The translations under genes and the position numbers were made by a program. This document shows, one piece after another, positions 4,386 through 60,952 of a stretch of 64,000 nucleotides of DNA. The notes under the pieces were generated by a model. The model saw only the letters and a program-made list of their open reading frames with translations. It ran no database searches and had not been told where the DNA came from. Position 1 is the stretch's first letter. Each line of letters begins with the position of its first letter. Source of the stretch: an uncultured Bdellovibrionales bacterium (GTDB lineage Bacteria > Patescibacteriota > Minisyncoccia > Moranbacterales > UBA9337); NCBI GenBank assembly GCA_964605525.1, contig CAZSCV010000001.1:18424-82423 (forward strand). Direction: 5' to 3'.

Positions 4386-5135
4386 TTATTTTTCAAGGCT
4401 TTTTCCCTTTTCCCACGCCAATTCGAAAAGCGGTCTCATCGAGCGCACCAGCTCATCAGATTCGATGACCACGATAAAAGGATTTTCTTCCAATGAAGTA
4501 ATTGCCAGTTTGTTGTCATAAATCGTAAAATCCATATGCGAATCTTTGAGCTCCGGAAGAATTTTAACTCTTTGGTTAACCTGAATAAATTTTTTCGCCA
4601 ATTCAATCTCATACGGACTATCCGAAATCAAATGACGGAAACCTGATTCGATGATTCCTTTTTGAGCTTTTTTTATCCATTCGGCAATTTTTCCCGAAAA
4701 TCGGTCCTCAATCCTTTGATAAGAAGAAATGAAAAAAGCGTCTTTCGCATTATTCATTTCTCCGTCCCAAATGCGAAGTATCCCTTCTTCGGTATCATAA
4801 TACCTGATTTTCGGTTTCTTACCGCTTTTATTTCCCAATGTCCGCAAAATCGGCAACATTTCGGAAAAATTCCGAGTGATTCCCTTTAACTGCACCAAAA
4901 TAACCGAGGGATCAGTGGCTTGATAAGTATTGATTTTTCGCTCCGGAAGTTCGCTCACATATCCCCGCTTGATCAATCCCTCCAAAAGCACATAAATTAT
5001 CGGGCGTTTCAGTCCGGAAATTTTGGCAATCTCCGTCACATTTCCCCGCCCCAATTCAAGCAAAGCCAAATACACCCGCGCCTCCTTGCCGGTAAATCCC
5101 GATTCTTCAAGTAATTTTATTAAATCTAAGTCCAT
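4386..5135 (-). CDS. TrmB-like winged-helix transcriptional regulator, paralog 1 of 7
   Basis: N-terminal wHTH GKEARVYLALLELGRGNVTEIAKISGLKRPIIYVLLEGLIKRGYV plus the conserved C-terminal block shared by all seven paralogs (...IVVIESDELVRSMRPLFELAWEK). Sits directly upstream of yebC-ruvC on the same strand. Confidence 0.7.
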   Translation of the reverse strand: MDLDLIKLLEESGFTGKEARVYLALLELGRGNVTEIAKISGLKRPIIYVLLEGLIKRGYVSELPERKINTYQATDPSVILVQLKGITRNFSEMLPILRTLGNKSGKKPKIRYYDTEEGILRIWDGEMNNAKDAFFISSYQRIEDRFSGKIAEWIKKAQKGIIESGFRHLISDSPYEIELAKKFIQVNQRVKILPELKDSHMDFTIYDNKLAITSLEENPFIVVIESDELVRSMRPLFELAWEKGKSLEK

Positions 5136-5149
5136 ACTCTTTATTTGTC

Positions 5150-5169
5150 ATTTCCGCGAAGGCGGGAAT
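5150..5169 (-). promoter_or_regulatory. GC-rich 5-prime-leader hairpin of TrmB paralog 1 (sense: ATTCCCGCcttcGCGGAAAT, followed by GACA)
   Basis: 7-bp stem with GAAG/CTTC loop lying 14 nt upstream of the start codon. Near-identical element (ATTCCCGttttcgCGGGAAT + GACA) precedes paralog 7 at 60177-60196. Confidence 0.45.
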
Positions 5170-5377
5170 ATAGTCAACATATCCACTCAATAGTTTAACA
5201 ATTATTTCTATTTTTGTCAATATTTTTGATAAATAATCATTTAAAATCCATAATTTCAGCCAATTTGTTGGATTTATTTATATTTTACGATTGACATTTT
5301 ATCATAAAAATACTATTATCATCTATTCTAGCAATGGAAAGCTGTTTAAAAATTCAATAAATAAAAGGAGAAAATCA

Positions 5378-5833
5378 ATGAAAGCTATCGCACGCTGGCT
5401 AAAAGAGTTTTTTATGGAATATATCTTGCTATTTATTTTGATGATACTGACCATATTTCTTTTCGTTGGGATCTTGTTTCATTTTAATCCGGCACTTCCA
5501 AAAGAAGAAATAATCAAAAAACAACTTACCTGCTATCAAGGAAGGGGTTACTTTTTGGAAAAATTTCTAGATAACGAGATTTTTATTATTCGCACGAAAC
5601 CAATGCCAATTCCAGAACTGGGACTTGATTTTTCTTTGGCAGAAAGAACAAGCGATGGAATGTTGTTTAATGTTTTAATTCCTGTCGGGAGAAATTTGGA
5701 GCCAAAAGATGAGGTACTTTTATTTCAATTCCAAAGCAAAAAAACCGTCTATAGCCAATTTAATGAATTTTTAATCGCAATACCTAAAAAGAATAACGAG
5801 GTGAAAAATCATGATCTGCCGAAATTGCAATAA
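5378..5833 (+). CDS. small membrane protein
   Basis: AAAGGAG RBS 7 nt before ATG at 5378 (MKAIARWLKEFFMEYILLFILMILTIFLFVGILF...). One N-terminal TM helix. ORF-track start at 5291 lacks an RBS. Confidence 0.5.
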   Translation: MKAIARWLKEFFMEYILLFILMILTIFLFVGILFHFNPALPKEEIIKKQLTCYQGRGYFLEKFLDNEIFIIRTKPMPIPELGLDFSLAERTSDGMLFNVLIPVGRNLEPKDEVLLFQFQSKKTVYSQFNEFLIAIPKKNNEVKNHDLPKLQ

Positions 5834-6314
5834 TCCGATTGATAATGACAGCCTGTTCTGCAAACATTGCGGAGCTATGCAAAAAGAAAAATGCCCGGAA
5901 TGCGGGGAAATGGAACTCATCGGCCACCCGGTATGTGAAACCCTTCTCAAAAAAATACGAAGAGAAAAATGGAAATTTATTTCTGACCATACCGAAAAAT
6001 TTCCTAGTTCTGATTCTGGATTGGCTACATTTTTAGCATTTCTAATTGCAGTCCAGGTAGTAATTGCAATTATTGCCGGAATAATTTTGATTCTTTACTT
6101 TTTGGGGTGGGTAAAGGATTTCATCTTTCCGTACGCATTGTGGGCCACGATATTTTTCGGAATAGAAAGTTGGTTATCCTATAAAGCAGCCATGCGATAC
6201 CTAGAGGGTAATGAAAAAAAGATGACTGAGGATAGAATAAAAACAGAGGATAAATTCCTCGCCGAAAACCCCGAATACGCCGAGATTCTTAAAAAGGCAG
6301 AGGAGAAAAAATAA
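5811..6314 (+). CDS. zinc-ribbon membrane protein
   Basis: N-terminal CxxC...CxxC...CPECG...C zinc-ribbon (MICRNCNNPIDNDSLFCKHCGAMQKEKCPECGEMELIGHPVC). Central TM helix (LATFLAFLIAVQVVIAIIAGIILILYFLGW). Overlaps upstream gene by 23 nt, suggesting translational coupling. Confidence 0.5.
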   Translation: MICRNCNNPIDNDSLFCKHCGAMQKEKCPECGEMELIGHPVCETLLKKIRREKWKFISDHTEKFPSSDSGLATFLAFLIAVQVVIAIIAGIILILYFLGWVKDFIFPYALWATIFFGIESWLSYKAAMRYLEGNEKKMTEDRIKTEDKFLAENPEYAEILKKAEEKK

Positions 6315-6325
6315 AATCCTTGCAA

Positions 6326-6366
6326 AAACGGACAGTCGGAAAAAATCCGCTGTCCGTTTTTTTTAT
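6326..6366 (+). terminator. rho-independent terminator
   Basis: ACGGACAG...CTGTCCGT stem followed by a T9 run, immediately after the 6314 stop. Confidence 0.6.
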
Positions 6367-6438
6367 TTTTCAAAAAAGACACCTTTAAAGGTGTTTGAAA
6401 AAAATTAATTAAGTTTTAGTTAAAAAAACTTGTCAAAC

Positions 6439-9409: not shown

Positions 9410-9850
9410 TCAAACAATTTTTCTTTGCGGGGAAGATATTCCCAATTGCTCCTTAACGGCAAAAACTACCTGACTTGGCTTCGTGTTTGCCTTAATAAGA
9501 TATTTTTTTGCACCTAGCGACAATGCTGCATCTCTGTCTCCATTTTGATCGAGATTGGTCAAAACTATAATCGGAATCTTGCTATATTCGGCATTAGAAT
9601 GTATCTTTTCAAGCAAATCAAATCCATCCATTTTCGGCATAATGATATCCAGAGTTATCAAATCTATAAGATCAAAATTTTCTTTTATTTTTTTCAAAAC
9701 TTCCTTTCCATCAGAACAACGTATCACCTCAAATCCATTCGCAATGAAAGCTTTGGCATACATTTCCGAGAGATCACGATCATCTTCGGCAATTAAAATT
9801 GTATTTCTTTTACCTGCCATATTTTTCACAATCCTATATTGCTTGTCCAA
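9410..9850 (-). CDS. orphan response-regulator receiver domain protein (CheY-like, no output domain)
   Basis: NTILIAEDDRDLSEMYAKAFIANGFEVIRCSDGKEVL...LITLDIIMPKMDGFDLLEKI has the D-D...D...K receiver pattern. No histidine kinase in the window. Start may be M at 9820, avoiding overlap with the upstream giant gene. Confidence 0.7.
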   Translation of the reverse strand: MDKQYRIVKNMAGKRNTILIAEDDRDLSEMYAKAFIANGFEVIRCSDGKEVLKKIKENFDLIDLITLDIIMPKMDGFDLLEKIHSNAEYSKIPIIVLTNLDQNGDRDAALSLGAKKYLIKANTKPSQVVFAVKEQLGISSPQRKIV

Positions 9851-24715: not shown

Positions 24716-25453
24716 ATGAGTATCCTTAATAAACTTCAAAAACTCAGCCTAAGCGAAATCCAGTCCAAAGCGTATATTGCCCTTTTACAGATTGGCGAGG
24801 GCAGCGCTTTGCAAGTTTCCCGCAATGCAAACCTCCCAAAATCAACGGTTTTTGAAACGCTTAAATCCCTTAACGGATTAAATCTAATTTCTAAGAGGTC
24901 ACAAGGGAACAAAAATATTTTCTTTGTTTCAGATCCACGCATTATCTTGGATAACATAAAAGAACAAGCACGAACAGCTGAAGACATCCTTCCGGAACTT
25001 CGCGGACTATACAAAGCTTTTAACAAAAATGCGCAAGTACGTTTTTTTGAAGGACCAAAAGCTATTGAAATAATTATAAACGAAACATTGATGGAAGCAA
25101 AAGAATTAAAATTAATAGGATCTATTTCTGATACAGTTGAATTCTACCCTAAATACTTTCCCCGATTCTCAATACAACGCGTTAAACGCAAAATACCTCT
25201 TCGTATACTCACAAACGACTCAGAGACAGCACAAGAAAATATTCTTCTAGATAAAAGAAAATTGCGCACAACCAAAATAATCCAAAATAAAGAATTTTCC
25301 TCAATGATTTGGATGTGGTCTGGTAAAATCGGCATAATTGCCACGCGAGGAAAACAATTTGCGATGGTTATCGATGAACCCGGAATATTCGGCATTCAAA
25401 CCGCAATGTTTGATTTAATTTGGGATTCGCTTCCGGAAAGTAAACAATATTGA
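24716..25453 (+). CDS. TrmB-like winged-helix transcriptional regulator, paralog 2 of 7
   Basis: SEIQSKAYIALLQIGEGSALQVSRNANLPKSTVFETLKSLNGLNLISK wHTH. Conserved C-terminal block ...FAMVIDEPGIFGIQTAMFDLIWDSLPE. Promoter TTGACT-N17-TATAAT at about 24628-24656. Small GC hairpin ACGGCGgttttGCCGT in the leader. Confidence 0.7.
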   Translation: MSILNKLQKLSLSEIQSKAYIALLQIGEGSALQVSRNANLPKSTVFETLKSLNGLNLISKRSQGNKNIFFVSDPRIILDNIKEQARTAEDILPELRGLYKAFNKNAQVRFFEGPKAIEIIINETLMEAKELKLIGSISDTVEFYPKYFPRFSIQRVKRKIPLRILTNDSETAQENILLDKRKLRTTKIIQNKEFSSMIWMWSGKIGIIATRGKQFAMVIDEPGIFGIQTAMFDLIWDSLPESKQY

Positions 25454-25479: not shown

Positions 25480-26250
25480 TTACTTTTGCGACAGTGTCCA
25501 AAGTTTTTTGAACATTTCACGCATATTGAAAGCTAGCGCATGATCATGCAGTTCTACTAGATAAAATGGGTGCTGCCGCGTGTTTATCATTATTAAATAA
25601 TCCCCAGCTACCCATACGCTTGAAGTGAAATTGAGATCATCCGCAAAACGCACATCCCTTTTATGCTTGAAATTTTTTTTAGCTTGCTTTTTCTCTATTT
25701 CTGACACATTGGTAAAAATTTGCCCGCGAAGATTCTTAGCATACGGCGTCTCCCATGAAGCATTTATCCATTTTTCGTAATTTTCCACGAAGCTATGATC
25801 CTGAAATCCCCACCAAACTCCATCAGACCCGACAACTGCCTTTGACCACTTGATCAAATTATCAAAAAGAAATTTTTCCAATCCATCCTCTTCAATAAAA
25901 ACAATTTTAGGAACAGGATATAGTTTTTCCGCGGTAATCAGATTCAGCTCCCCGACAGCCTTTTTTATCAAAACCTCTTTGTCTTTGATTTCCCGACGCA
26001 TCTGATCCAAGATTTTTTCTAAATTTTTAGGCGGCAAAGGGACATAATACAACGATTTGGAACTTATATCTTCAGCTATGATGCCCTTTGACAACAAATT
26101 TCCCGCAACGCTATACAAAGTCGCCCTGTTTAATTTCGTAATTTTCGCCAAAACAGCAGGCTTTACCTTGCCGCTTTTCAATAAGGCTAGGTAAACTTTG
26201 ATTTCTTTGTCATTCAAGCCTAGATTTTTCAAAATTTGATGGATACTCAT
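25480..26250 (-). CDS. TrmB-like winged-helix transcriptional regulator, paralog 3 of 7
   Basis: DKEIKVYLALLKSGKVKPAVLAKITKLNRATLYSVAGNLLSKGII wHTH. Conserved C-terminal block. Promoter TTGACA-N17-TATAAT ends 6 nt before ATG (near-leaderless). Surrounded by a 30-bp near-palindrome centred on CAATTG. Confidence 0.7.
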   Translation of the reverse strand: MSIHQILKNLGLNDKEIKVYLALLKSGKVKPAVLAKITKLNRATLYSVAGNLLSKGIIAEDISSKSLYYVPLPPKNLEKILDQMRREIKDKEVLIKKAVGELNLITAEKLYPVPKIVFIEEDGLEKFLFDNLIKWSKAVVGSDGVWWGFQDHSFVENYEKWINASWETPYAKNLRGQIFTNVSEIEKKQAKKNFKHKRDVRFADDLNFTSSVWVAGDYLIMINTRQHPFYLVELHDHALAFNMREMFKKLWTLSQK

Positions 26251-27832: not shown

Positions 27833-28612
27833 CTACTTTTCCAACATCTTCCACATCATCTCAAAATATTGCCGGTGGGTTTCGGCGAAGTCCCTACTTT
27901 CTATTACGACGATAATGTTTTCCTCCTTGGTTGAGAACATTGCAATCTTGTTTCCGAAAATTATTTCCGTCGAAGGAAATTGGAACTCTTTCGGAGCAAG
28001 GCGCGTTTCTCGGTTGTGCTTCAAATCTATTTTTTGAAGCTTTTGCGCCGACTGCGAATCTTCATTGATAGCTCGGCTGGAAAAACCCAGACGAACTTTC
28101 TTTTTTTGGATCTCTTCCAAAAAACTTTCACCCGCAAATTCAATGAATGTTTCAATACGAGCCAAACTCAAAAAGTTTTTGTCCTTGGAAGAAAAAATAT
28201 CATTCCAAACTTTTTTGAACCCTTTTTCTCCCTCATAAACCCTAATCTGGGGTTTAAAGGAATCGCCTAGATAGATGGCATTGATCGTCGGTAGGATGTC
28301 CTCCACGATTTTTTTGGATTTTTGCAATTCATGATGTTTTTCATCTAGAAGCGCATACAGCTTGCCAGTCGGATTTTCAGAAATCAACCTCCTTTTCTTA
28401 CCTTTCTTTATTTCCGTGACAAATCCTTTAATTTTCAACTTTTCAACAATATCATAAACCGTCCCGCGGCTTAATTCAGTGCCTTCAGAAATTGAAGGAA
28501 TAGAAGCTTCGCTATTTTCCATAACTGACAGATATATCAAAGATTCCTTATCAGTTAATCCTAATTGTAAAAGACCGCTCAGAACCTCCTTTTTTTGAAT
28601 TTTGCTTAACAT
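27833..28612 (-). CDS. TrmB-like winged-helix transcriptional regulator, paralog 4 of 7
   Basis: LTDKESLIYLSVMENSEASIPSISEGTELSRGTVYDIVEKLKIKGFV wHTH. Conserved C-terminal block ...IIVVIESRDFAETHRQYFEMMWKMLEK. Promoter TTGATA-N17-TATATT ends 2 nt before ATG (leaderless). Confidence 0.7.
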   Translation of the reverse strand: MLSKIQKKEVLSGLLQLGLTDKESLIYLSVMENSEASIPSISEGTELSRGTVYDIVEKLKIKGFVTEIKKGKKRRLISENPTGKLYALLDEKHHELQKSKKIVEDILPTINAIYLGDSFKPQIRVYEGEKGFKKVWNDIFSSKDKNFLSLARIETFIEFAGESFLEEIQKKKVRLGFSSRAINEDSQSAQKLQKIDLKHNRETRLAPKEFQFPSTEIIFGNKIAMFSTKEENIIVVIESRDFAETHRQYFEMMWKMLEK

Positions 28613-45360: not shown

Positions 45361-45383
45361 AGGAAAATAAAGTTATTTTTTTA

Positions 45384-50269: not shown

Positions 50270-50995
50270 ATGCTGGAAGCACTCAAAAAAATAGGAATGG
50301 AAAGCAAGCAAGCTAAAATATATTTAGCTTGTCTTGAAATTGGACAAGCTTCTATTATTGATGTTTCCAGAAAAACCGGCATTAAGCGAACAACAGTATA
50401 TGAAAACATTGAACAAATGACCCAAGAAGGCTTTATTCAAGAGACTTTTCAAGGTAAAAAAAGAAAATTTGTAGCATTGGAGCCTCGGGAGTTGAAAGAA
50501 TTATTAAGAAAAAGAGAAAATTTATTAAATCAGATAATGCCTCAGCTTCTTGCGATGGGCAATGCAAGCACGGTAAAGCCAAAAATTTGGACACAGCAGG
50601 GAAAAGAAGGAATGCTTGCAGTCTACGAAGATTCTTTGAATTATCCAGATAGCGAGGTAGTCGGCTGGGCTTCCGGTGAAGTAATTAAGCTTTTTTCCCA
50701 ACAAGAATGTGATGATTATATCCAAAAGAGAATTAAGAAGAAAATAATGCAGACATTAATTATGCCAAGCGACAAGGCTTCGAGTAATTTTGCAGAAAAT
50801 AACAAATATCAGTTGCGAAAAACAAAAATCGTTGATTTTGAGGAGTATCCATTTAAAATTGAAATAAATATGTACGCCAATCGGGTGGCTATTTTTTCCG
50901 TAAAAGACAAAATGGCAGTTATTTTGGAGTCGGAACCGATTGCTTCGGCAATGAGGATGATTTTCCGAATGTGTTGGAAAGGCTTACCGGAGTAA
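50270..50995 (+). CDS. TrmB-like winged-helix transcriptional regulator, paralog 5 of 7
   Basis: SKQAKIYLACLEIGQASIIDVSRKTGIKRTTVYENIEQMTQEGFI wHTH. Conserved C-terminal block ...MAVILESEPIASAMRMIFRMCWKGLPE. Only 29 nt upstream of uvrD on the same strand. Confidence 0.7.
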   Translation: MLEALKKIGMESKQAKIYLACLEIGQASIIDVSRKTGIKRTTVYENIEQMTQEGFIQETFQGKKRKFVALEPRELKELLRKRENLLNQIMPQLLAMGNASTVKPKIWTQQGKEGMLAVYEDSLNYPDSEVVGWASGEVIKLFSQQECDDYIQKRIKKKIMQTLIMPSDKASSNFAENNKYQLRKTKIVDFEEYPFKIEINMYANRVAIFSVKDKMAVILESEPIASAMRMIFRMCWKGLPE

Positions 50996-51024: not shown

Positions 51025-53187
51025 ATGAACAAACTACTTGAACAATTGAATGTAGCGCAGAGGGAGGCGGTGGAGGCTACTGAGGGGCCAGTTTTAGTGA
51101 TTGCTGGGGCTGGATCGGGAAAGACTCGCGTGCTTACTCACCGAGTCGCTTATTTAATAACAGAAAAAGGCGTAAAACCGCAAAATATTCTAGCTGTAAC
51201 ATTTACCAATAAAGCCGCGCAAGAAATGAAAGAGCGAATAAATAAATTGTTAGCGGATGGGTTTAATGCTTCACGTTCCACTTCGCACGTTAATGTTGGT
51301 ACTTTTCATTCAATTTGTGTAAAAATATTGCGCAGAGAGATTGATAAACTTGGTTATCAAAAGTCCTTTAATATTTTTGATGACCAGGATCAGAAAGTTT
51401 TAATGAAAAAAGTTGTCAAGGAATTGGAGATTAATACCGAACAATTCAACCCCAAAACTTTTTTAGCCGTTATTAGTAAGGCAAAAAATGAACTTCGGGA
51501 TGAGTATGCTTTTGAGGTTGGAATCGGAGGGTATTACGAAGAGATTGTGGCAAAAGTGTACAAAAAATATCAGAAGGAATTGAGGGAAATTAACGCTTTG
51601 GATTTTGACGACCTAATTCGATTGACTATTGAGCTTTTTCAGAAATTCCCCGAGATATTGGAGAAATATCAAAATCTTTTCAAATATATTTTAGTGGATG
51701 AATACCAGGATACTAATCATGCGCAATATACTTTAGTGCGATTGTTGGCTCAAAAACATCAAAATCTTTGTGTCGTTGGCGATGATTGGCAGTCAATTTA
51801 TGGCTGGAGGCAGGCAGATATCCGCAATATTTTGAGTTTCGAGAAAGATTATCCGCAAGCGAAATTAATAACATTGGAGCAAAACTATCGTTCCACGCAG
51901 AATATATTAGACGCTGCTTACGGCGTTATTTCTCAGAATGTAAACAGAAAAGACAAAAAAGTGTGGACGGACAACAAGGAAGGTCATCAAATTGTTTCAT
52001 TTGAAGCGCAAGATGAGCGCGAAGAGGCTGAATTTGTGGCACGCACAATAAGAGAAGAGCAGATGAATGAAGGAGCGCCGGGTAAATTTTCAGATTTTGC
52101 TGTGTTATACCGAACAAACGCACAATCGCGAGCCTTAGAAGAGGTTTTCTTGCGAGAAGATATTCCCTATCGAATTATCGGCGGATTAAAATTCTATCAA
52201 CGAAAGGAAATCAAAGATGTCATTGCTTATCTACATCTTATGCAGAATGGATTAGACTATGTATCCCTGGAGCGGGTTATTAATGAGCCAAAGAGAGGAA
52301 TCGGAAAAGCCACGTTAGGAAAATGGATTACTTTTTCGAAAAAAGTAGGAAAGAATCTCATCTTGACAGGATTAGGTATGGATAATGAATCCGGATTGAA
52401 TAAGGGAAAAGTCGATGAAATTAAAAAGTTCTGTGATTTTATCGTTCGGATGCAGGATTTAAGGGAAAAAATTGAGTTGGCGGATCTTATTGAAAAGGTT
52501 TTTTATGAAAGCGGTTATGAAAAAGTATTGTCGAGCATGGGAGCAGATGGCGAAATGCGATTGGAAAATGTAAGGGAGCTTCTTAGTGTGGCGGGAAAAT
52601 ATGCCGGAGTAAAAGCAAATGAATCCCTTGATTTGTTCTTGGAGGAAGTGGCACTAGCTAGTGATACTGACAATATTGAAAAAAGAGAAAATTCAGTGCA
52701 TTTAATGACGCTTCATAGTGCTAAGGGTCTTGAATTTCCTTCGGTTTTCATTGTGGGGCTTGAGGAGGGCATTCTCCCGCATTCACGAAGTATGCTTAGT
52801 GAGAGTGAAATGGAAGAAGAAAGAAGATTGATGTATGTGGGTATTACACGAGCAATGAAAAAAGTTTATCTGTTGTTTACTCAAATGAGAATGATTTTTG
52901 GCTCAACACAAGCCAATCCCCCTTCGCGATTTCTGGAAGATATTCCCCGGCATCTTATATTACCGGAAAGTACGAAGTGCGAAAAACAAAAAGAAAAACG
53001 ATTGGATAAGCACACAGCACATTCTGCATCTCAACTTTCGCGCTTTAGGGATGGACAAAGGATTATTCATGCTAACTTTGGAGAAGGAATAATTATTTCT
53101 ATTACTAATGATATAGCAACAATTGCCTTCCCTCACAAAGGAATTAAACGAATATCTCTTTCAATAGCGCCAATAAAAGAAGCGTAA
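51025..53187 (+). CDS. uvrD: ATP-dependent DNA helicase UvrD/PcrA family
   Basis: Q-motif/Walker A LNVAQREAVEATEGPVLVIAGAGSGKTRVLTHR. Motifs II (ILVDEYQDTN), III, V and VI (VGITRAMKKVYL) in order. 720 aa. Confidence 0.85.
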   Translation: MNKLLEQLNVAQREAVEATEGPVLVIAGAGSGKTRVLTHRVAYLITEKGVKPQNILAVTFTNKAAQEMKERINKLLADGFNASRSTSHVNVGTFHSICVKILRREIDKLGYQKSFNIFDDQDQKVLMKKVVKELEINTEQFNPKTFLAVISKAKNELRDEYAFEVGIGGYYEEIVAKVYKKYQKELREINALDFDDLIRLTIELFQKFPEILEKYQNLFKYILVDEYQDTNHAQYTLVRLLAQKHQNLCVVGDDWQSIYGWRQADIRNILSFEKDYPQAKLITLEQNYRSTQNILDAAYGVISQNVNRKDKKVWTDNKEGHQIVSFEAQDEREEAEFVARTIREEQMNEGAPGKFSDFAVLYRTNAQSRALEEVFLREDIPYRIIGGLKFYQRKEIKDVIAYLHLMQNGLDYVSLERVINEPKRGIGKATLGKWITFSKKVGKNLILTGLGMDNESGLNKGKVDEIKKFCDFIVRMQDLREKIELADLIEKVFYESGYEKVLSSMGADGEMRLENVRELLSVAGKYAGVKANESLDLFLEEVALASDTDNIEKRENSVHLMTLHSAKGLEFPSVFIVGLEEGILPHSRSMLSESEMEEERRLMYVGITRAMKKVYLLFTQMRMIFGSTQANPPSRFLEDIPRHLILPESTKCEKQKEKRLDKHTAHSASQLSRFRDGQRIIHANFGEGIIISITNDIATIAFPHKGIKRISLSIAPIKEA

Positions 53188-53511: not shown

Positions 53512-53529
53512 TTGTTCCATGTGGAACAA
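53512..53529. promoter_or_regulatory. parS-like palindrome 2 (variant TTGTTCCATGTGGAACAA)
   Basis: One C-to-T change in the CACGTG core. Flanks extend the dyad (ACACAATTGTTCC...GGAACAATTGTGT). Confidence 0.45.
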
Positions 53530-53706
53530 TTGTGTAAATGTATAACTTGAATAATTGAAATATTTTTTTTGTATCTATTTATTTGTTAAAAAAGAATTAT
53601 TAAAAAAGTCTAAATAATTAGTAGGAAGACAAAGAACTTTTTTGTGATTGATATATTGCGATGTTATATATTGCAAGTTTGAATTCCTAGAAAGCATATT
53701 TTGTAA

Positions 53707-53724
53707 TTGTTCCACGTGGAACAA
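53707..53724. promoter_or_regulatory. parS-like palindrome 3
   Basis: TGTAATTGTTCCACGTGGAACAATTACA. Core perfect, flanking dyad extended with compensatory changes. Confidence 0.55.
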
Positions 53725-53879
53725 TTACAAGAATACAAACTTTTTGATAAAAAATAAATCAGCATAGCTAAGGGATATTTTTTGATTGATTGCAGCAATG
53801 GGTATTTTTTTAAATTTTGATCGGTAATGGCCTGTTGAAGTTGATTTTTATCATAAGCAGAGATTTATATAGATGTATA

Positions 53880-53897
53880 ATGTTCCACGTGGAACAT
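53880..53897. promoter_or_regulatory. parS-like palindrome 4 (ATGTTCCACGTGGAACAT)
   Basis: 16-bp core perfect. Outer position changed symmetrically (A...T). Confidence 0.55.
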
Positions 53898-54050
53898 TGA
53901 AGTTGTTTGGTATATTTTTTTAGTAAAAAACTTTAATAATATCCAAAAAAGTGCTGTTTTTTAATTAGTTGCGATAAATAAGATATTTTTCTATTCTTTT
54001 AATAGGGCTGATTTTAAAATAAAAAAGTAATGATTTATATGAAAGTATAA

Positions 54051-54068
54051 TTGTTCCACGTGGAACAA
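54051..54068. promoter_or_regulatory. parS-like palindrome 5
   Basis: TATAATTGTTCCACGTGGAACAATTATA, a perfect 28-bp extended dyad. Confidence 0.55.
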
Positions 54069-54184
54069 TTATACTAGGCGGATTATTTCTCGTTTAGTGT
54101 TTGTTGTATTTATTTTAATAATTAGTGATACATCGGAAGGTTTGATAGATTTTTTTTGCGTAGTATGGGTTTGTTTTTATTATA

Positions 54185-54202
54185 TTGTTCCACGTGGAAC
54201 AA
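54185..54202. promoter_or_regulatory. parS-like palindrome 6
   Basis: TATATTGTTCCACGTGGAACAATTAGG. Core perfect. Confidence 0.55.
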
Positions 54203-54497
54203 TTAGGGTTAATTTTATGTTTGAATGTATGCAAATGTGGATAACTTATAAGAGATACTTAAAACAAAGGGTTTTTCTTATTAAAAGCTGTGGATAATGT
54301 GTGAATTAAAATAGATACTAGCCTATTTTAGTTGACAAAAAAGTAAATATATTGCATAGTATAAATATATAATAGTTTCAAATTATTTTTTTTAAAAAGT
54401 GTTAAGCGGGATGAATTCAATGATTTAGAGCCCACTTCTTTTGTGTTTTTGTTGACGGTTTGTTTTATTTCGTTTATGATTGGCTTGTTGAAAATAA

Positions 54498-54570
54498 GGG
54501 CCATTAGCTCAATTGGTAGAGCGCTTCCATGGCATGGAAGAGGCAGCCGGTTCGAATCCGGCATGGTCCA
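54498..54570 (+). tRNA. tRNA-Ala (anticodon GGC)
   Basis: Hand-folded cloverleaf GGGCCAT/ATGGTCC acceptor with G3:U70 Ala identity pair. D-arm GCTC/GAGC. Anticodon stem CTTCC/GGAAG, loop ATGGCAT. T-arm GCCGG TTCGAAT CCGGC. Discriminator A. No encoded CCA. Confidence 0.85.
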
Positions 54571-54679
54571 CTACGCAAAATTTATTATTAACAATAAATT
54601 TTTGTGTAGTGGCCACGTTTGTGGTTTTTTGTTTATTTAAAACTGCGATTGTGATATTGTAGTAGTGTATAAACTTATT

Positions 54680-54754
54680 GTCCTTGTAGTTCAATGGATA
54701 GAACGAGTCCCTCCTAAGGACTAAATGCAGGTTCGATTCCTGCCAAGGACACCA
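54680..54754 (+). tRNA. tRNA-Arg (anticodon CCT)
   Basis: Acceptor GTCCTTG/CAAGGAC. Anticodon stem AGTCC/GGACT, loop CTCCTAA. T-arm GCAGG TTCGATT CCTGC. Discriminator A plus encoded CCA. Confidence 0.85.
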
Positions 54755-54794
54755 CGTAAAATTCGCTACGCTCATCACGTGGCATAGCAAACTT

Positions 54795-56294
54795 ATGATT
54801 AGGAAAATTCCATCTCAAATTGTTGAGGTGCTTGAAAAAATTCAAAAAGCGGGGTTCGAAGCGTACATTGTTGGTGGATGTGTGCGTGATTTGTTGTGCC
54901 ACAAAGATCCAAAGGACTGGGACTTGACAACAAATGCCAGACCAAATGAGATTTTGAATATTTTTGGAGAAGAGAATGCTTTTTATGAAAATGATTTTGG
55001 AACAGTAGGGGTGAAGATTGGGAGCAAAGAATCAGGAATTGTGAATCAAGAAGAAAAGAAAGAAATTGTGGAGGTGACGACTTATCGAATTGAAAGTAAA
55101 TATTCCGATCGGAGAAGACCGGACGAGGTGAAATTCGCCAAAACGCTGGAAGAAGATTTGAGTCGGCGGGATTTTACGGTAAACGCGATTGCCCTGCGAG
55201 TTACGGACTTCACAAAATTGCAAACGGGAGCGGATGGATATGAAATTATTGATTTATTCGGAGGACGGAAAGATATCGAGGATAGGATTATTCGAGCGGT
55301 GGGTGCTGCAAGCAAAAGATTTGATGAGGATGCTCTGCGGATGATGCGGGCGGTGCGCTTCCACGCGCAATTGGGGTTTGATATTGAGAAAAAAACTTTC
55401 AAAGCGATCAAAGAAAACGCTTTTTTAATGAAACATATTTCCGCGGAAAGAGTAAAAGATGAATTTTCCAAAATAATTTTGTCAAGCAATCCAGCGGAAG
55501 GGGTGGATATGCTTCACGAAACTGGGCTTTTGAATTTTGTGATTCCGGAATTGGAAAACGGAGTAGATGTGGGACAAAACCGCCATCATATTCACACAAT
55601 ATACAAGCACAACTTGTTGGCACTCAAATTTTGCCCTTCAAAAAAACTTGAAGTGCGTCTGGCGGCGCTACTTCACGACATCGCCAAACCTCAAACCAAA
55701 AGAGGCGAGGGGTATTATTCAACTTTCTATAATCACGACCATGTGGGCGCGCGCGTGGCAAAAAAGATTTTGCAGCGGCTCAAGTTTTCCAATGAAATTA
55801 CCAACAAAGTCGTTCTTCTGATTAATAATCATATGTTTTATTATAATCCCGAAGAAGTTGGGGAGGCTTCAGTGCGCCGTTTGATTCAAAAAGTCGGATT
55901 GGAAAATATGAAAGACTTGATGGATGTGCGAATCGCTGACCGACTGGGGAGCGGAACGCCAAAAGCTAAGCCGTACAAATTGCGCCATTTGGAATATTTG
56001 ATCGACAAAGTTTCCAAAGATGCGGTATCGGTAAAAATGCTGAAAATCGGCGGTAATGATTTGATAAAAGAATTGAAACTTGCCCCCGGTCCGAAAATCG
56101 GAGCGATTTTGGATGTGCTTTTGGCAGAAGTGATTGAAGACGCAAAAAAGAATAACCGCCAGTATTTGCTCAAAAAAGCGACGGAACTTGACAAGGAAGA
56201 TCTGTCAAAATTGCGCGAAATGGCAAAAGAAAAAATAGAGGAGAAAAAAGAGGAGGATGACAAGGAGTTGAAAGGGAAGCATTGGGTGAAATAA
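54795..56294 (+). CDS. cca: CCA-adding tRNA nucleotidyltransferase with HD domain (class II Pol-beta NTase family)
   Basis: GGCVRDLLCHKDPKDWDLTT motif, RRDFTVNAIAL. HD-domain histidines LLHDIAKP...NHDHVG. 499 aa with a KE-rich C-terminal tail. Immediately downstream of two tRNA genes. Confidence 0.8.
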   Translation: MIRKIPSQIVEVLEKIQKAGFEAYIVGGCVRDLLCHKDPKDWDLTTNARPNEILNIFGEENAFYENDFGTVGVKIGSKESGIVNQEEKKEIVEVTTYRIESKYSDRRRPDEVKFAKTLEEDLSRRDFTVNAIALRVTDFTKLQTGADGYEIIDLFGGRKDIEDRIIRAVGAASKRFDEDALRMMRAVRFHAQLGFDIEKKTFKAIKENAFLMKHISAERVKDEFSKIILSSNPAEGVDMLHETGLLNFVIPELENGVDVGQNRHHIHTIYKHNLLALKFCPSKKLEVRLAALLHDIAKPQTKRGEGYYSTFYNHDHVGARVAKKILQRLKFSNEITNKVVLLINNHMFYYNPEEVGEASVRRLIQKVGLENMKDLMDVRIADRLGSGTPKAKPYKLRHLEYLIDKVSKDAVSVKMLKIGGNDLIKELKLAPGPKIGAILDVLLAEVIEDAKKNNRQYLLKKATELDKEDLSKLREMAKEKIEEKKEEDDKELKGKHWVK

Positions 56295-56321
56295 ACTTTA
56301 TTATTTGGTAAAAAAGAAAAA

Positions 56322-56390
56322 AGCCAGGAACCGTGATGGGTTGCTGGCTTTTGAAATAAAAAAGGCGGGGAACTGCGATGAGTTTCCGCC
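56322..56390 (+). terminator. tandem terminator hairpins after the CCA gene; second one (56354-56380) belongs to the GATGAG-loop family
   Basis: AGCCAGGAACC...GGTTGCTGGCTTTTG, then AAAAAGGCGGGGAACTGCGATGAGTTTCCGCCTTGTTTTTTT. Confidence 0.5.
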
Positions 56391-56494
56391 TTGTTTTTTT
56401 GCCTACAATAAGCTAAAAATATTTGATTTGGACCAAAAAGAGCAGAATTAACAAAAAGTCTTGACTTTTTTCCAGTTTAGTGTAAAATGGTAAT

Positions 56495-57625
56495 ATGAAT
56501 AGATTTCAACAGCAACAAATCATTCAAGACTTAGCCAAGAAAATGGTTTTCATTACCGGTCCGAGACAAGTCGGGAAAACCTGGCTGGCTAAAGAGATTA
56601 GCAAGGGTTTCAAATCCCCCCTGTATCTTAATTATGACAACTTTGACCAGCGCCAAATCATCCAAAAAGAACAATGGCCGCAAGCAACCGATCTTCTGAT
56701 TTTTGATGAAATCCATAAAATGCCGGATTGGAAGAATTATCTGAAGGGAGTTTATGATACAAAAAATGAGACCACGAAAATTTTGGTGACTGGCAGTGCC
56801 AGATTGGAAACTTTTCGTCAATCCGGAGACTCTTTGGCTGGCCGATTTTTTGCGCACAAACTATTGCCATTTTCTTTGGCTGAATTGCGCAAGATAGATT
56901 CCACAAAAGAATCTTTGATTGATTCATTGATCCAGAGGGGTGGTTTCCCAGAACCATTTTTAGCCGCAACTGACATTGAAGCGGAAAGATGGCGCAATCA
57001 GTATATCGATGGCTTGGTTCGACATGATATTTTGGATTTTGAAAATATTCATGATTTCAAATCAGTCCAACTCGTTTTTGAATTATTGCGCCGAAGGACT
57101 GGTTCGCCAATCTCGCTAAATTCAATTGCTATCGATGTCGGAATTTCACCTGTAACGGTTAATAAATATCTGCAAATATTTGAAGCGCTCTATATTGTTT
57201 TTCGCGTCACACCCTATTCAAAAAATATCGCCCGCTCAATTTTAAAAGAATCAAAAGTATATTTTTTTGATAATGGATTAGTAATTGGGGACGATGGCGC
57301 TAAAATTGAAAATTTTGTCGCTATCTCTTTGTTAAAAAACATCTCCGCCAAAAATGATCTATTGGGGGAGCGCGGCGAACTTAAATATGTGCGCACCAAG
57401 GATGGCAAAGAAGTTGATTTTGCAATAATCAATGGAGAAAATGAAATCGAGGAACTTATCGAAGTAAAAAAACAGGATAATAATCTAAGTAAAACTTTGA
57501 AATATTTTGTAGAAAAATATAGCCTTAAAGGAATTCAACTGGTTAAAGAATTGAAAAATGAAAAACAAATCGGCAATATCCGAATTCTGAAAATGGAGAA
57601 CTATTTAAAAAATTTGTTTCTATAA
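56495..57625 (+). CDS. AAA+ ATPase (AAA_14 + DUF4143-type, family recalled), copy 2
   Basis: Walker A ITGPRQVGKTWLAKE. Walker B LLIFDEIH. Same architecture as copy 1 (28814-29998). Promoter TTGACT-N17-TAAAAT upstream. Confidence 0.65.
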   Translation: MNRFQQQQIIQDLAKKMVFITGPRQVGKTWLAKEISKGFKSPLYLNYDNFDQRQIIQKEQWPQATDLLIFDEIHKMPDWKNYLKGVYDTKNETTKILVTGSARLETFRQSGDSLAGRFFAHKLLPFSLAELRKIDSTKESLIDSLIQRGGFPEPFLAATDIEAERWRNQYIDGLVRHDILDFENIHDFKSVQLVFELLRRRTGSPISLNSIAIDVGISPVTVNKYLQIFEALYIVFRVTPYSKNIARSILKESKVYFFDNGLVIGDDGAKIENFVAISLLKNISAKNDLLGERGELKYVRTKDGKEVDFAIINGENEIEELIEVKKQDNNLSKTLKYFVEKYSLKGIQLVKELKNEKQIGNIRILKMENYLKNLFL

Positions 57626-57644
57626 AAAACAGCGCTTAGGCAAA

Positions 57645-57726
57645 TAAAAAAGGCGGAGAACTCGATGAGTTTCCGCCTTTGAGCTTGAACTTTTCAGGCA
57701 AGAAAGTTAGAGTCAACTTTCTTGCC
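57645..57726. terminator. two consecutive hairpins after AAA-ATPase 2: GATGAG-loop hairpin (57652-57677) and perfect 12-bp inverted repeat GGCAAGAAAGTT...AACTTTCTTGCC (57697-57726)
   Basis: AAAAAAGGCGGAGAACTCGATGAGTTTCCGCCTTT is about 90% identical to the hairpin at 56349-56385 on the other side of the ATPase gene. Confidence 0.5.
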
Positions 57727-57755
57727 AATGTTTATCACCCCCTTTTCTTATCCCC

Positions 57756-58115
57756 CTAACGATATATAATGTATTTTGCAAAGGGAATTTCTTCTCTATG
57801 AAACATGTATCCATTAGCCGGAGAAAAGACTACCCTAATCTCGATAATACTGTAATCGTTTCTCGCATTTTTTTGGATAAAAATGCAGCGCGGCCAGATG
57901 TCTTGATGGTCAAGAAAATACTTGAAATTATCGTTAAACAGAAGATTGTTTATTTGTTCCTTAGTCATGGAACACTTTTTAACCCCACTTTTGAAAAAAC
58001 TTGGGGTGCCAATTTCTTTCCACGAGATATTCCCTAAAAGGAATATTGCACGTCTATTTCCTGAGACACAAGTAATGGTTTTGTGGTTTTCGAAAAAGTA
58101 ATGCATGACGCTCAT
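57756..58115 (-). CDS. hypothetical protein (119 aa)
   Basis: AAGGAGAG RBS 7 nt upstream of ATG (MSVMHYFFENHK...). No recognisable domain. Confidence 0.35.
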   Translation of the reverse strand: MSVMHYFFENHKTITCVSGNRRAIFLLGNISWKEIGTPSFFKSGVKKCSMTKEQINNLLFNDNFKYFLDHQDIWPRCIFIQKNARNDYSIIEIRVVFSPANGYMFHREEIPFAKYIIYR

Positions 58116-58359
58116 AGTCGCTCTCCTTGAAATATGTGCTCATTATTGAGCTTTTTTATAAAATGATTTTTAAAAAAACTGTTGTCATGAATCTTTTTGC
58201 TGTTCTCATCATGACTCTGTAGTATATCGCAAATTGGCAAACTATGTGGAAGTGGTTTCCAAATTTATTGCTAAAATTGACAAATTATGGCTTATCTGAT
58301 ATACTAAAAGTGTTGAAATATAATCCACAACATTCACCCTGTCAAATAAATTTTAAGTT

Positions 58360-59130
58360 TTGATTATGATAAAGAGTCTTTTAGAACAACTGAATTTCTC
58401 GGAAAAAGAGTCCGCTATTTATCTAGCGCTTTTGGAAATGGGTTCAACGAAACCCAGTATTTTAGCCAAAAAAACTGGCCTGAATCGCACCACCGTCTAT
58501 GATATTTGCGAGCTTTTGATGCAAAAAGGTTTGATTTCGAAATATAAAAAAGGCGCCGGCACATTCTTTAATGCGCTGGATCCCAAACATTTACTGACAT
58601 ATCTTGACCGAGAAAGAGAAGAAAAGGCCAAAGAGATTGAAAAACAGAAGGGCAAGGTTTCTGAACTTCTGCCCCAGCTTTTGTCGATGCAAAACATTTA
58701 TGGCGCCAGTAAGCCGAAAGTGCAGTTTTTTGAAGGAGAAAAGGGGATGCGCGAGGCTTATGAAGACACGCTTACCAGCAAGGAAATTATCCTAGCTTAT
58801 GCCAATCCGCAGACGATGCATGAGGGTCTGCCCAATTTCTTTCCGGAATATTACAAGCGCCGGGCGGAAAAAAGAATCTTTATTAAAGCCATCATTCCCA
58901 GAAACAAGATGTCTTTGGAAAGAATGGCGCACAATCAGGAAGAAATGCGCGATACCCGCTTTTTGCCCGAAGAAAAAATGACTTTTTCGCCAGAAGTGAA
59001 TATCTATAACAACAAAATGCTCATCGCCTCATGGAAAGAAAAAATAGCTATCATTATCGAATCGAAAGAGTTGGTCGATTTGCAAAAAATGACCTTCGAT
59101 TTATTGTGGGAAAGTTTGCCGAGAAATTAA
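58360..59130 (+). CDS. TrmB-like winged-helix transcriptional regulator, paralog 6 of 7
   Basis: SEKESAIYLALLEMGSTKPSILAKKTGLNRTTVYDICELLMQKGLI wHTH. C-terminal block ...KIAIIIESKELVDLQKMTFDLLWESLPRN. Promoter AAAATTGACAAATTATGG...TATACT. Confidence 0.7.
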   Translation: MIMIKSLLEQLNFSEKESAIYLALLEMGSTKPSILAKKTGLNRTTVYDICELLMQKGLISKYKKGAGTFFNALDPKHLLTYLDREREEKAKEIEKQKGKVSELLPQLLSMQNIYGASKPKVQFFEGEKGMREAYEDTLTSKEIILAYANPQTMHEGLPNFFPEYYKRRAEKRIFIKAIIPRNKMSLERMAHNQEEMRDTRFLPEEKMTFSPEVNIYNNKMLIASWKEKIAIIIESKELVDLQKMTFDLLWESLPRN

Positions 59131-59210
59131 AAAATATTTCGGGTTTAAGGAGTTTCGGCCTTTGCAGAGGAGGATTATTTCCAATATTTTGGCAGGAGGC
59201 AATCAGGCAA
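59129..59210 (+). pseudogene. remnant of recQ 5-prime end (about 25 codons) left by segmental duplication
   Basis: aaaaaatatttcgggtttaaggagtttcggcctttgcagaggaggattatttccaatattttggcagga is about 90% identical to 61005-61075 (start of recQ). In recQ frame it reads [23 protein letters not shown] then stop after 8 more codons. Confidence 0.5.
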
Positions 59211-59404
59211 ATTATGCAATTGCATGATATTATACATTTAGTATAACAAATACGTTATACTAAATGTTAAATTATACTCAAATTATGTCCAAGATGGCTA
59301 GAAAACTTAATCCGAAAATTCCTTGCCATCGTGTTATCCGAACGGATGGAAAAATTGGCGGGTATAACCGCGGTGAAGATAAAAAACGGGAAATTTTGGA
59401 AAAA

Positions 59405-59440
59405 GAAAAAAGCCGGAAGTTTTGATGAGCTTCCGGCGGT
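59405..59440 (-). terminator. GATGAG-loop terminator hairpin for the 59470-59895 gene
   Basis: AAAAAAGCCGGAAGttttgatgagCTTCCGGC. 8-bp stem, T-run on the minus strand. Confidence 0.5.
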
Positions 59441-59469
59441 AAGAATACCCTATTTCAGTAAGCAAGAGA

Positions 59470-59895
59470 TTATTTCATAATCTCTTCTAAATTCTCCAAA
59501 CCTTCTTTCCAGTTATCAGCAAGAGGAACAGGAGCAATTTTTGCTGTTGGATATAAGTCCGGTAGCTGATTAACAAAAACCTCGGCATATTGCCATAATG
59601 TTGACCAGCTCTTGGCGTTATAAACAATAGCCACTGGAATTGTTTTATTGGTACTGAGGATTTGACCGATGCACATGAAAACAACCGCAGTTGTCATCAC
59701 AAAAGTACATTCATTGATAATAGATGCGACCAGAACGCCGTCTATAGGAACATTTTGAATAATATTTTTTGTATCTTCCAGATTTGTTGCTATTAAATAT
59801 TCATATTTTCTATTTTTATTCAATCTATCTCCGTTCAATTTTTTCTTTGCTTCATTCGCTGTTTCTTGTGTTGCCACAAGTAGGATTTTTTTCAT
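59470..59895 (-). CDS. hypothetical protein (141 aa), possible flavodoxin/Rossmann-like fold
   Basis: AAGGAG RBS before MKKILLVATQETANEAKKKL... Alternating beta-alpha pattern (ILLVA...YLIATNL...IDGVLVASI). ORF-track N-terminal extension lacks an RBS. Confidence 0.4.
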   Translation of the reverse strand: MKKILLVATQETANEAKKKLNGDRLNKNRKYEYLIATNLEDTKNIIQNVPIDGVLVASIINECTFVMTTAVVFMCIGQILSTNKTIPVAIVYNAKSWSTLWQYAEVFVNQLPDLYPTAKIAPVPLADNWKEGLENLEEIMK

Positions 59896-60176
59896 ACTAG
59901 TCTCCTTTTTAAAGATTGAGTTTGGAATTGAGCTAAAGCGTGACAAGGTTTTGAATGAACTTTTGTTAAGACTCGATTCTTTTTCGACTTCTTGTCTCAA
60001 CAAACCAGTATGTATCCAAAAGAAAATATTGTCAATAATTGGCGTCAAATTATTTAAGTTAGATTTTTAGCAAAAGAGAAAAATAGCTTTAAAATGAAGT
60101 AATATTGACAAAATATGGTAGTACGATATGATTATTATGTTGACGGAAAGTGCCGACAACTATTTTATTTTACTGG

Positions 60177-60196
60177 ATTCCCGTTTTCGCGGGAAT
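60177..60196 (+). promoter_or_regulatory. GC-rich 5-prime-leader hairpin of TrmB paralog 7 (ATTCCCGttttcgCGGGAAT, followed by GACA)
   Basis: 6-bp stem 9 nt upstream of ATG 60206. Preceded by promoter TTGACA-N16-TATGAT (about 60100-60127). Homologous to the paralog 1 leader element. Confidence 0.45.
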
Positions 60197-60205
60197 GACA
60201 TAGAA

Positions 60206-60952
60206 ATGCAAATCAAAGAATTTTTACAGAAGTTTGATATTGATGGGAAAAAAGCGGATGTTTATCTGGCAGTTTTGGAATTGGGGAGTGGAACTGCCAA
60301 TGAGATTGCTAAAAAGTCTGAAATTAAAAGAACGACTTGCTATGATGTCTTGCAAGATTTGGAAAAACCCGGTTTGGTTTATGAAACCAGCAAAGGCAAA
60401 AAAAGGCTTTTTGTGGCGGAGGATCCGGAAAAATTGCGCAAAAAAATAAGCGAAAAGGAAAAACTTCTTGATGAAATGCTCCCTGAGTTGCGATCTTTCT
60501 ACAATATCAAAGGGACAAAACCGAAAATCAGGTTTTATGAGGGCAAAGAGGGATTGCGCGAGGTATATGCGGATACCCTGAATTATTCCGGAGAAATGCT
60601 GGTATTTGCGTCGGAAGACGTAGCGAAAATTTTGGGGATGAATTGGACGAACGATTATTTGGCAAAAAGAGTGAAAAAAGAATTGCGGGTACGAGCGATT
60701 ATGCCAAAGACAAAAATTATTGAACAAGATTTTGTTTCGAAAGACCAAAAACAACTTCGCGCCTCCAAGTTGGTTGATGCGAAAAAATATCCTTTTTCTA
60801 TCGAAATCAACATTTATGGTCATCAAAAAGTAGCACTAATGTCTTCGCGAGAAGAAATGGGAATTATTATTGAAGGTGCGGAGATTTACAACACTCTGAA
60901 GCTTATTTTTGAATTATTGTGGGATAATCTGCCAGAGATTGAAATAAGCTAA
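60206..60952 (+). CDS. TrmB-like winged-helix transcriptional regulator, paralog 7 of 7
   Basis: GKKADVYLAVLELGSGTANEIAKKSEIKRTTCYDVLQDLEKPGLV wHTH. C-terminal block ...MGIIIEGAEIYNTLKLIFELLWDNLPE. 39 nt upstream of recQ. Start placed at MQIKEF (after the leader hairpin). Confidence 0.7.
   Translation: MQIKEFLQKFDIDGKKADVYLAVLELGSGTANEIAKKSEIKRTTCYDVLQDLEKPGLVYETSKGKKRLFVAEDPEKLRKKISEKEKLLDEMLPELRSFYNIKGTKPKIRFYEGKEGLREVYADTLNYSGEMLVFASEDVAKILGMNWTNDYLAKRVKKELRVRAIMPKTKIIEQDFVSKDQKQLRASKLVDAKKYPFSIEINIYGHQKVALMSSREEMGIIIEGAEIYNTLKLIFELLWDNLPEIEIS

Follow-up and report, generated by a model that had tools for sequence, protein, structure and literature searches.

Why should a bacterium keep seven genes for TrmB-like regulators within 64 kb, three of them co-oriented with DNA repair operons that follow closely downstream? 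The question is raised by positions 18,424 to 82,423 of contig CAZSCV010000001.1, from an uncultured member of the Patescibacteria with an ultra-small genome (this whole 64-kb stretch, with a G+C content of 35-38%, is called here the window). Proteins identical to those of the window are on record under 'Candidatus Berkelbacteria bacterium Athens1014_28' and 'Parcubacteria group bacterium Athens0714_25', and the nearest relatives of the genome in a scan of one genome per GTDB species are Moranbacteria. Patescibacteria account for a large share of bacterial diversity and, to our knowledge, almost nothing is known of their gene regulation; TrmB-type factors are regarded as mainly archaeal. The seven genes are part of a large Patescibacteria-specific expansion of TrmBL2-type proteins (TrmBL). 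The account that we favor, to which we give as a whole a probability of about 0.5, is that members of this expansion repress themselves through an inverted repeat at their own promoter, that close downstream neighbors are co-regulated, and that two clades of the family are linked to repair genes. An abundant family would thus come with a testable pair of promoter and candidate operator, two of its clades being tied to repair and recombination; if this link is functional, it provides an entry to transcription control and DNA-damage handling in mostly uncultured organisms, and the cassette of operator and repressor could serve as a compact orthogonal regulatory part.

Family and Fold of the Seven Paralogs

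A first-pass annotation of the window had listed seven open reading frames (ORFs) with a TrmB-type winged helix-turn-helix (wHTH) at the N terminus and a shared C-terminal block. All seven are present, and they are named par1 to par7 by their position in the window:

4386..5135, minus strand: TrmBL par1, 249 amino acids (aa), PF01978 E 3e-15
24716..25453, plus strand: TrmBL par2, 245 aa, PF01978 E 2.6e-11
25480..26250, minus strand: TrmBL par3, 256 aa, probably leaderless, PF01978 E 1.9e-12
27833..28612, minus strand: TrmBL par4, 259 aa, PF01978 E 7e-12
50270..50995, plus strand: TrmBL par5, 241 aa, PF01978 E 1e-10
58360..59130, plus strand: TrmBL par6, 256 aa, PF01978 E 2e-13
60206..60952, plus strand: TrmBL par7, 248 aa, PF01978 E 1e-15 (the longest ORF begins at 60128, the orthologues at 60206)

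In agreement with the annotated wHTH, PF01978 matched the first ~75 residues of all seven proteins (E 1e-15 to 1e-10; 41.8-57.8 bits versus a gathering cut-off of 25.6), and the C-terminal ~150 residues of all seven matched no Pfam family. The sequences are divergent, par2 to par7 being 19-29% identical to par1. The proposed C-terminal block is nevertheless there (VIES...F.L.W), and its F...W is invariant among the seven paralogs, as are one L, one Y, and one P.

The AlphaFold2 model of par7, computed from an alignment of 66 sequences, reached a predicted local distance difference test (pLDDT) score of 92.9, and in it residues 1-72 form a wHTH, residues 75-100 a 25-residue helix, and residues 107-241 an alpha/beta domain. 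When this model was compared with the PDB by Foldseek, the top match was full-length TrmBL2 (5bpd, E 9e-15), followed by TrmB. A profile of the family run against PDB sequences aligned TrmBL2 over residues 8-242, the F...W helix included (E 1e-8), whereas the alignment with the sugar-sensing TrmB ended at residue 146. The scores with the NCBIfam equivalogs of TrmB, TrmBL1, and TrmBL2 were far below the cut-offs (15-41 bits versus 500-650), including that of TrmBL2, NF041141 (19-27 bits versus 530). The family is therefore TrmBL2-like in architecture and the orthologue of no characterized member.

The alpha/beta domain resembles the single-domain phospholipase D (PLD)-like nucleases Nuc, NucT, and Zucchini. 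These carry a catalytic His in the HKD motif; this His is missing in six of the seven paralogs, and the lysine is nearly invariant. The loss of the His argues that the Nuc/PLD-like domain is inactive, and by analogy with TrmB it presumably serves as a ligand-binding or dimerization module. In the wHTH, the recognition-helix tyrosine Y46, the counterpart of Y50 in the Y50/D51 pair of TrmB, is conserved in at least 90% of the 66 sequences; the recognition helix reads KRTTxYD in most clades, and par1 to par4 have other helices.

An alternative raised by the first-pass annotation, that of a sugar-binding TrmB with a carbohydrate regulon, is ruled out by three observations. PF11495, the sugar-sensing effector domain, gave no match at E<=1 in the seven proteins of 241-259 aa; the modeled par7 stops after one PLD-like domain and would lack the beta-barrel sugar-binding subdomain of TrmB; and the only carbohydrate gene among ~104 downstream neighbors of the family is one fucosidase, the others serving repair, translation, and stress functions. 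Other candidates were also rejected. The proteins had no match in Pfam to the WYL domain, which marks damage regulators such as PafBC and DriD, and no relatives in the viral contigs of IMG/VR that would point to a phage or prophage repressor. As for a defense-system component, PADLOC gave only weak matches of the wHTH to Csa3/CasR (E 1e-4 to 3e-6, residues ~5-90).

With clustering at 50% identity, an exhaustive profile search retrieved 5081 clusters at E<=1e-30, a number that rises to 13,219 at E<=1e-10. The family makes up 7 of the ~51 genes of the window and ~3% of the non-anchor genes in related loci. Among the 150 top-ranking representatives of the family, about 25 have a length of 500-1079 aa and contain three to seven matched stretches (e.g. 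P0288, P0289, P0300, P0311, and the gene at L038:17746-20514, minus strand); these proteins join two to four TrmBL modules in tandem within a single chain. A literature search found no paper on TrmB that also mentions Patescibacteria or the Candidate Phyla Radiation, and the family appears to be a bacterial variant of the TrmB/TrmBL2 kind that had not been described before, with a testable promoter-operator architecture.

Promoters and Inverted Repeats of the TrmBL Genes

Every paralog gene has its own near-consensus sigma-70 promoter, and inverted repeats lie at or close to most of them:

5192..5220, minus strand: par1 promoter, TTGACA-17-TAAACT
5150..5169, minus strand: par1 GC-rich leader hairpin, within the 24-nt ATTCCCGYYTTCGCGGRAATGACA
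24639-24667, plus strand: par2 promoter
24682-24697, plus strand: par2 inverted repeat, ACGGC-N6-GCCGT
26257-26285, minus strand: par3 promoter
26268-26288, minus strand: par3 perfect inverted repeat, TTGTTGA-N7-TCAACAA, overlapping the promoter including the -35 box
26299-26313, minus strand: par3 second palindrome, AATATTGTCAATATT
28735-28763, minus strand: par4 distal promoter, TTGACA-17-TAAAAT
28717-28736, minus strand: par4 perfect inverted repeat, ATGACG-N8-CGTCAT
50205-50233, plus strand: par5 promoter, TTGACA-17-TAATAT
50238-50259, plus strand: par5 inverted repeat, ATGTCATCGGAAAAACCGACAT
58277-58305, plus strand: par6 promoter
58311-58332, plus strand: par6 weak inverted repeat
60105-60132, plus strand: par7 promoter, TTGACA-16-TATGAT
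60137-60160, plus strand: par7 inverted repeat, ATGTTGACGGAAAGTGCCGACAAC
60177..60196, plus strand: par7 second leader hairpin

To place these elements in a wider context, loci were collected by searching one genome per GTDB species with the par7 clade (78 loci) and metagenomes with the par5 clade (66 loci). The strict form of the repeat, TGTYGAC-N6-11-YCGACA, was found at 36 sites in 1.27 Mb of these loci (0.65 expected), and 33 of the 36 are directly upstream of a TrmBL gene (including four next to genes whose called ORF start was too long). Because it is almost exclusive to TrmBL promoters, we read the repeat as a putative autoregulatory operator, which is consistent with repression by TrmB and TrmBL1 through spaced inverted repeats located at the core promoter or downstream of it. 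Known operator motifs of the TrmB type include the TGM and TACT-N7-GAGTA.

The position of the repeat is fixed by the promoter. Upstream of par7 orthologues the order of elements is near-invariant (ATATTGACA, a 17-nt spacer, TATACT, 4 nt, and ATGTTGAC-N8-TCGACAT), and in four clades the repeat invariably begins 3 or 5 nt past the -10 box; between the repeat and the ATG there are 1 to 128 nt. The constant offset from the -10 box and the variable distance to the ATG indicate that the repeat is tied to the promoter rather than to the ribosome-binding region. The repeat also follows the protein: it goes with the TrmBL clade whichever gene is next, and in par5 orthologues an identical repeat lies upstream whether recQ or uvrD follows. 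The par5 clade carries the variant ATGTC(A/G)TCGGAAAAA(G/C)CGACAT, and further clades have TGTAGTCGA...TCGACA, ATGACGG...CGTCAT, and TTGTCGAA...TTCGACAA; in the window, intergenic perfect 6-nt repeats with these cores are found upstream of par3 and par4 only. The clades with the recognition helix KRTTxYD share a CGAC core, and par1 to par4, which have other helices, have other repeats. A trans regulon inside the window is ruled out, all the repeats there being at the own promoters of the TrmBL genes.

Two earlier statements on these promoters held in part. The motif AATATTGACAAWWTAT, proposed as a shared promoter element, has 34 matches in the window at <=3 mismatches (14.5 +/- 3.6 expected), and its three sites with <=1 mismatch (26299, 58273, and 60101) are all upstream of TrmBL genes. 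It corresponds to an extended -35 element (AATATTGACAA, common to TrmBL promoters), and the more specific signal is the inverted repeat past the -10 box. Leaderless transcription, proposed for par3 and par4, is probable for par3, where TATAAT ends 6 nt before the ATG, and doubtful for par4, where a better promoter with a repeat lies ~105-150 nt upstream.

The leaders of par1 (5146-5169, minus strand) and par7 (60177-60200, plus strand) share the 24-nt GC-rich hairpin element listed above just before the start codon. These are the sole two copies in the window, none being expected by chance, and the long leaders of par7 orthologues contain similar GC-rich hairpins.

Genes Downstream of TrmBL and the Link with DNA Repair

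Three paralogs precede repair operons in the window, and Pfam matches confirmed the identity of the four partner genes, all co-oriented with their TrmBL gene:

3572-4324, minus strand: yebC, downstream of par1 (gap 61 nt), Pfam YebC E 5e-43
3067-3612, minus strand: ruvC, after yebC, Pfam RuvC E 2e-51
51025..53187, plus strand: uvrD/pcrA, after par5 (gap 29 nt), Pfam UvrD-helicase E 3e-98
60992..63166, plus strand: recQ, after par7 (gap 39 nt), Pfam DEAD, Helicase_C, RecQ_Zn_bind, RQC, and HRDC

The claim of a repair gene directly downstream of each of the three thus stands for uvrD and recQ, and not for par1, where yebC comes before ruvC. A simple scan of the par5-uvrD and par7-recQ gaps found neither a promoter nor a terminator, and gaps of 29-39 nt without a terminator would imply co-transcription.

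In the related loci, the upstream neighbor of the TrmBL genes is divergent in 98 of 119 cases, and TrmBL genes therefore usually head transcription units; the downstream gene is co-oriented in 72 cases and convergent in 42. Enrichment was calculated over 145 related loci with ruvA/B/C, polA, fpg, recQ, uvrD, and holA labeled as the repair/replication set. Such genes account for 23 of the 104 immediate co-oriented downstream neighbors of TrmBL, compared with 75 of the 1451 other genes in the same loci (odds ratio 5.2, p 2e-8); with yebC counted in, the figures are 45/104 and 81/1451. The enrichment persisted when TrmBL-partner pairs were de-replicated at 70% identity (15/84 versus 38/1254, odds ratio 7, p 2e-7) and at 55% identity (12/71 versus 18/1099, odds ratio 12). 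These data support a non-exclusive link with repair that concerns the clades of par5 and par7 and is seen chiefly in Moranbacteria-like lineages.

The idea of a dedicated paralog for each repair gene did not survive the comparison of orthologues, since those of par5 and par7 head differing partners. The par7 orthologues (54-77% identical) are mostly ahead of yebC-ruvC-7TM-ATPgrasp, the slot that par1 occupies in the window, and in one genome par7-type and par1-type genes stand in tandem ahead of yebC. The downstream genes of the par7 clade (n=39) are yebC in 16 cases, a convergent gene in 9, another gene in 8, a contig end in 4, polA in 1, and recQ in 1, which is that of the window. Members of the par5 clade (44-85% identity) are ahead of fpg(mutM)-DUF3048-holA in six cases, of recQ in two, plus P0124 in a close relative, and of uvrD in the window, plus P0121; thus one of three repair genes follows in 9 of the 11 members whose contig includes a downstream gene. 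In close relatives, the gene ahead of recQ is either par7 (L157, with a 100% identical par7 protein and an 87% identical RecQ) or of the par5 type (L155). As for the par1 orthologues (55-83% identical), one (P0023) is ahead of yebC-ruvC-7TM-ATPgrasp, another is ahead of nothing, and a third is near uvrA. Given these differing partners, the pairing cannot be called one-to-one, and the genes that replace each other as partners are for the most part repair genes. Over all loci, about half of the downstream partners are unrelated genes such as those for tRNA synthetases (TyrRS/TrpRS), FtsH, the CCA enzyme, KsgA, and HSP20. The partners outside the labeled set are diverse and also include TilS, ComM, DnaG, a PolX-like protein, desulfoferrodoxin, and AAA_14/DUF4143 ATPases.

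Proposed Mechanism and Alternative Explanations

In the mechanism that we favor, a TrmBL dimer would bind its own repeat (typically TGTYGAC-N6-11-YCGACA, with clade-specific variants, 3-5 nt past the -10 box), at about -3 to +20, and repress its own promoter. Close co-oriented genes without an intervening terminator would share the transcript and hence be co-regulated, as may be the case in the window for uvrD, recQ, and probably yebC-ruvC. The par5-like and par7-like clades would preferentially head repair and recombination genes, swapping partners over evolution, possibly by recombination between paralogous TrmBL genes, and other clades would head unrelated genes or stand alone. Three features make a nucleic-acid-derived ligand of the C-terminal domain conceivable: its Nuc-like fold, the phosphate-binding lysine that it keeps, and the single-stranded DNA (ssDNA) binding of archaeal TrmBL2. 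A further extension, which we regard as unlikely, is that these genes form in Moranbacteria-like organisms a distributed regulon in which each repair operon (yebC-ruvC, polA, fpg-holA, recQ, uvrD) carries a cis-encoded auto-repressed paralog whose inactive Nuc/PLD-like domain would sense a nucleic-acid-derived signal such as ssDNA, so that a damage response unrelated in fold to LexA would run without a single repressor with many operators. In this reading the paralogs could also cross-regulate each other because of their near-identical recognition helix (KRTTxYD) and operator core (CGAC).

Several points weigh against the favored account. The loci were ascertained via two TrmBL clades, the neighbors had been inspected before they were labeled with repair categories, and shared ancestry was corrected only crudely in the enrichment statistics. 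In 42 of 114 cases the downstream gene is convergent, and these family members regulate nothing in cis. The TrmBL-yebC gaps in other genomes span 48-454 nt, and yebC may therefore have its own promoter. Of five RecQ orthologues sampled independently of TrmBL, only the closest one (87% identity) is preceded by a TrmBL gene; the other four, 56-57% identical, lack it. This rules out a RecQ-TrmBL pair common to all Patescibacteria, and the TrmBL-repair link is lineage-restricted. The half-site centers of the repeat are ~15 bp apart, which we take to be wider than in characterized TrmB operators. Finally, the repeat of the par7 clade conserves a T.G opposition, equivalent to a G.U pair in RNA, and an alternative role of the repeat as a 5'-terminal RNA hairpin is conceivable.

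The adjacency to repair genes might be incidental, the mere outcome of an abundant family of genes that tend to occupy operon heads in variable regions and whose arrangements were spread by synteny and by recombination between paralogs. The abundance of the family, both in the window and in its 5081 clusters, the diversity of partners, the four distant RecQ orthologues without TrmBL, and the presence of mobile or defense genes (AbiEii, PDC-S01-type ATPases, ORF6N, Fic) in TrmBL-rich stretches would all fit this explanation, and the partner swap is what recombination between paralogous genes would yield. However, the enrichment survives both levels of de-replication, 9 of 11 members of the par5 clade are followed by one of three repair genes, and the short gaps without a terminator suggest co-transcription, so that we consider incidental adjacency possible but not probable.

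A different alternative concerns the repeat itself, which might be an RNA hairpin at the 5' end of the TrmBL mRNA acting on its stability or translation. The repeat does begin near the expected transcription start, the one non-Watson-Crick position of the par7 clade is always T.G, in several orthologues the start codon abuts the repeat with no room for a Shine-Dalgarno sequence, and the whole par7 leader has a minimum free energy of -20.5 kcal/mol (z -3.0 versus shuffled sequences). Yet beyond the T.G position there is no excess of G.U (~13 G.U-type versus 18 A.C-type in 102 unique repeats), deeply separated clades keep the arm sequences and differ in the spacers, the element occurs specifically at genes for a DNA-binding protein, the leaders matched no Rfam family, and the hairpin of par5 has little stability (-4.2 kcal/mol, z -1.3). 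These data make an RNA element improbable. Least of all do we expect the proteins to be nucleoid-associated and to coat DNA non-specifically in the manner of TrmBL2. The full-length similarity to TrmBL2 in structure and profile would agree with such a role, since TrmBL2 is an abundant chromatin protein and global repressor, but seven divergent paralogs in 64 kb, each with its own specific repeat, and equivalog scores far below the TrmBL2 cut-off make it very unlikely.

Comparison with Known Regulators

TrmBL2 (Pyrococcus furiosus PF0496 and Thermococcus kodakarensis TK0471; PDB 5bpd and 5box), with a length of ~260 aa, has the same architecture as the window proteins, that is, a wHTH, a long helix, and a single PLD-like domain without a sugar-binding subdomain, and the C-terminal F...W helix aligns. 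Unlike the archaeal protein, a single one that binds DNA non-specifically and with similar affinity for ssDNA and double-stranded DNA, the bacterial ones are multi-copy, have paralog-specific repeats at their own promoters, and are only ~20% identical to it. With TrmB/TrmBL1 (Tgr; Thermococcales) and Halobacterium TrmB the family shares the wHTH and the recognition-helix Tyr. These regulators are however ~340 aa long and control a carbohydrate regulon, whereas the window proteins lack the barrel of ~70-90 residues that holds six of the seven sugar-binding residues and have non-carbohydrate neighbors.

By its self-repression and its link with uvrD, ruv, polA, and recQ-type genes, the proposed regulator recalls LexA and the SOS response. 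A LexA-type repressor was nevertheless rejected, as the proteins have no Peptidase_S24 match in Pfam and an unrelated, PLD-like fold; in addition, LexA is one regulator with many operators, whereas TrmBL would be a regulator copy in cis for each operon. Sanchez-Osuna and co-workers reportedly described in 2017 a LexA network in Patescibacteria, so TrmBL control need not replace SOS.

Other Observations in the Window

The uvrD-recQ region (53187-60992) is a variable island. In contig JALNYX010000005.1 of a close relative (L066/L155), par6 is 98% identical to that of the window, the interval between uvrD and par6 is longer by ~10 kb and holds a methyltransferase gene and two additional TrmBL genes, and AbiEii, AbiEi-like genes, and a DNA_binding_1 (MGMT-like) gene are found past par6 towards recQ. 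Two AAA_14/DUF4143 ATPases of the window (28814-30055, minus strand; 56495-57625, plus strand) match the PADLOC candidate defense family PDC-S01 (E 3e-71 and 1e-57, respectively), and elsewhere an ATPase gene of this type again neighbors TrmBL, as the next gene downstream in four cases and on the upstream side in three.

Between uvrD and tRNA-Ala, a 1.3-kb AT-rich stretch with no ORF of at least 80 aa contains six copies of the perfect palindrome (AAT)TGTTCCACGTGGAACA(ATT), at 53340-54205 and spaced 134-195 nt, none being expected by chance. This palindrome matches what we take to be the chromosomal parS consensus, TGTTNCACGTGAAACA, and on that account the array looks like an unusually dense tandem set of parS sites. 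The sign of the GC skew flips and gene orientation diverges at ~44-46 kb, and no skew change accompanies the dnaA-dnaN and rnpA-yidC-jag cluster at 17-22 kb; the origin may therefore not adjoin dnaA.

A block of large proteins without Pfam matches (939, 641, 431, and 380 aa; 34790-46631, minus strand) surrounds a VirB4/TraG-like ATPase (38667-40466) and a LysM-CHAP hydrolase (45384-46631), adjoins a tyrosine recombinase (46866-47789), and resembles the type IV secretion or conjugation-like machinery reported for Patescibacteria. Divergent from par3, an EamA-type transporter gene appears to be split into two overlapping ORFs (26418-26840 and 26783-27421; 26418-27421 overall), which may reflect a frameshift or a pseudogene. 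Finally, an ORF of 2275 aa (9826-16653, minus strand) with a local G+C content of ~42% lies beside genes for a lamin-tail/PKD surface protein and a stand-alone response regulator.

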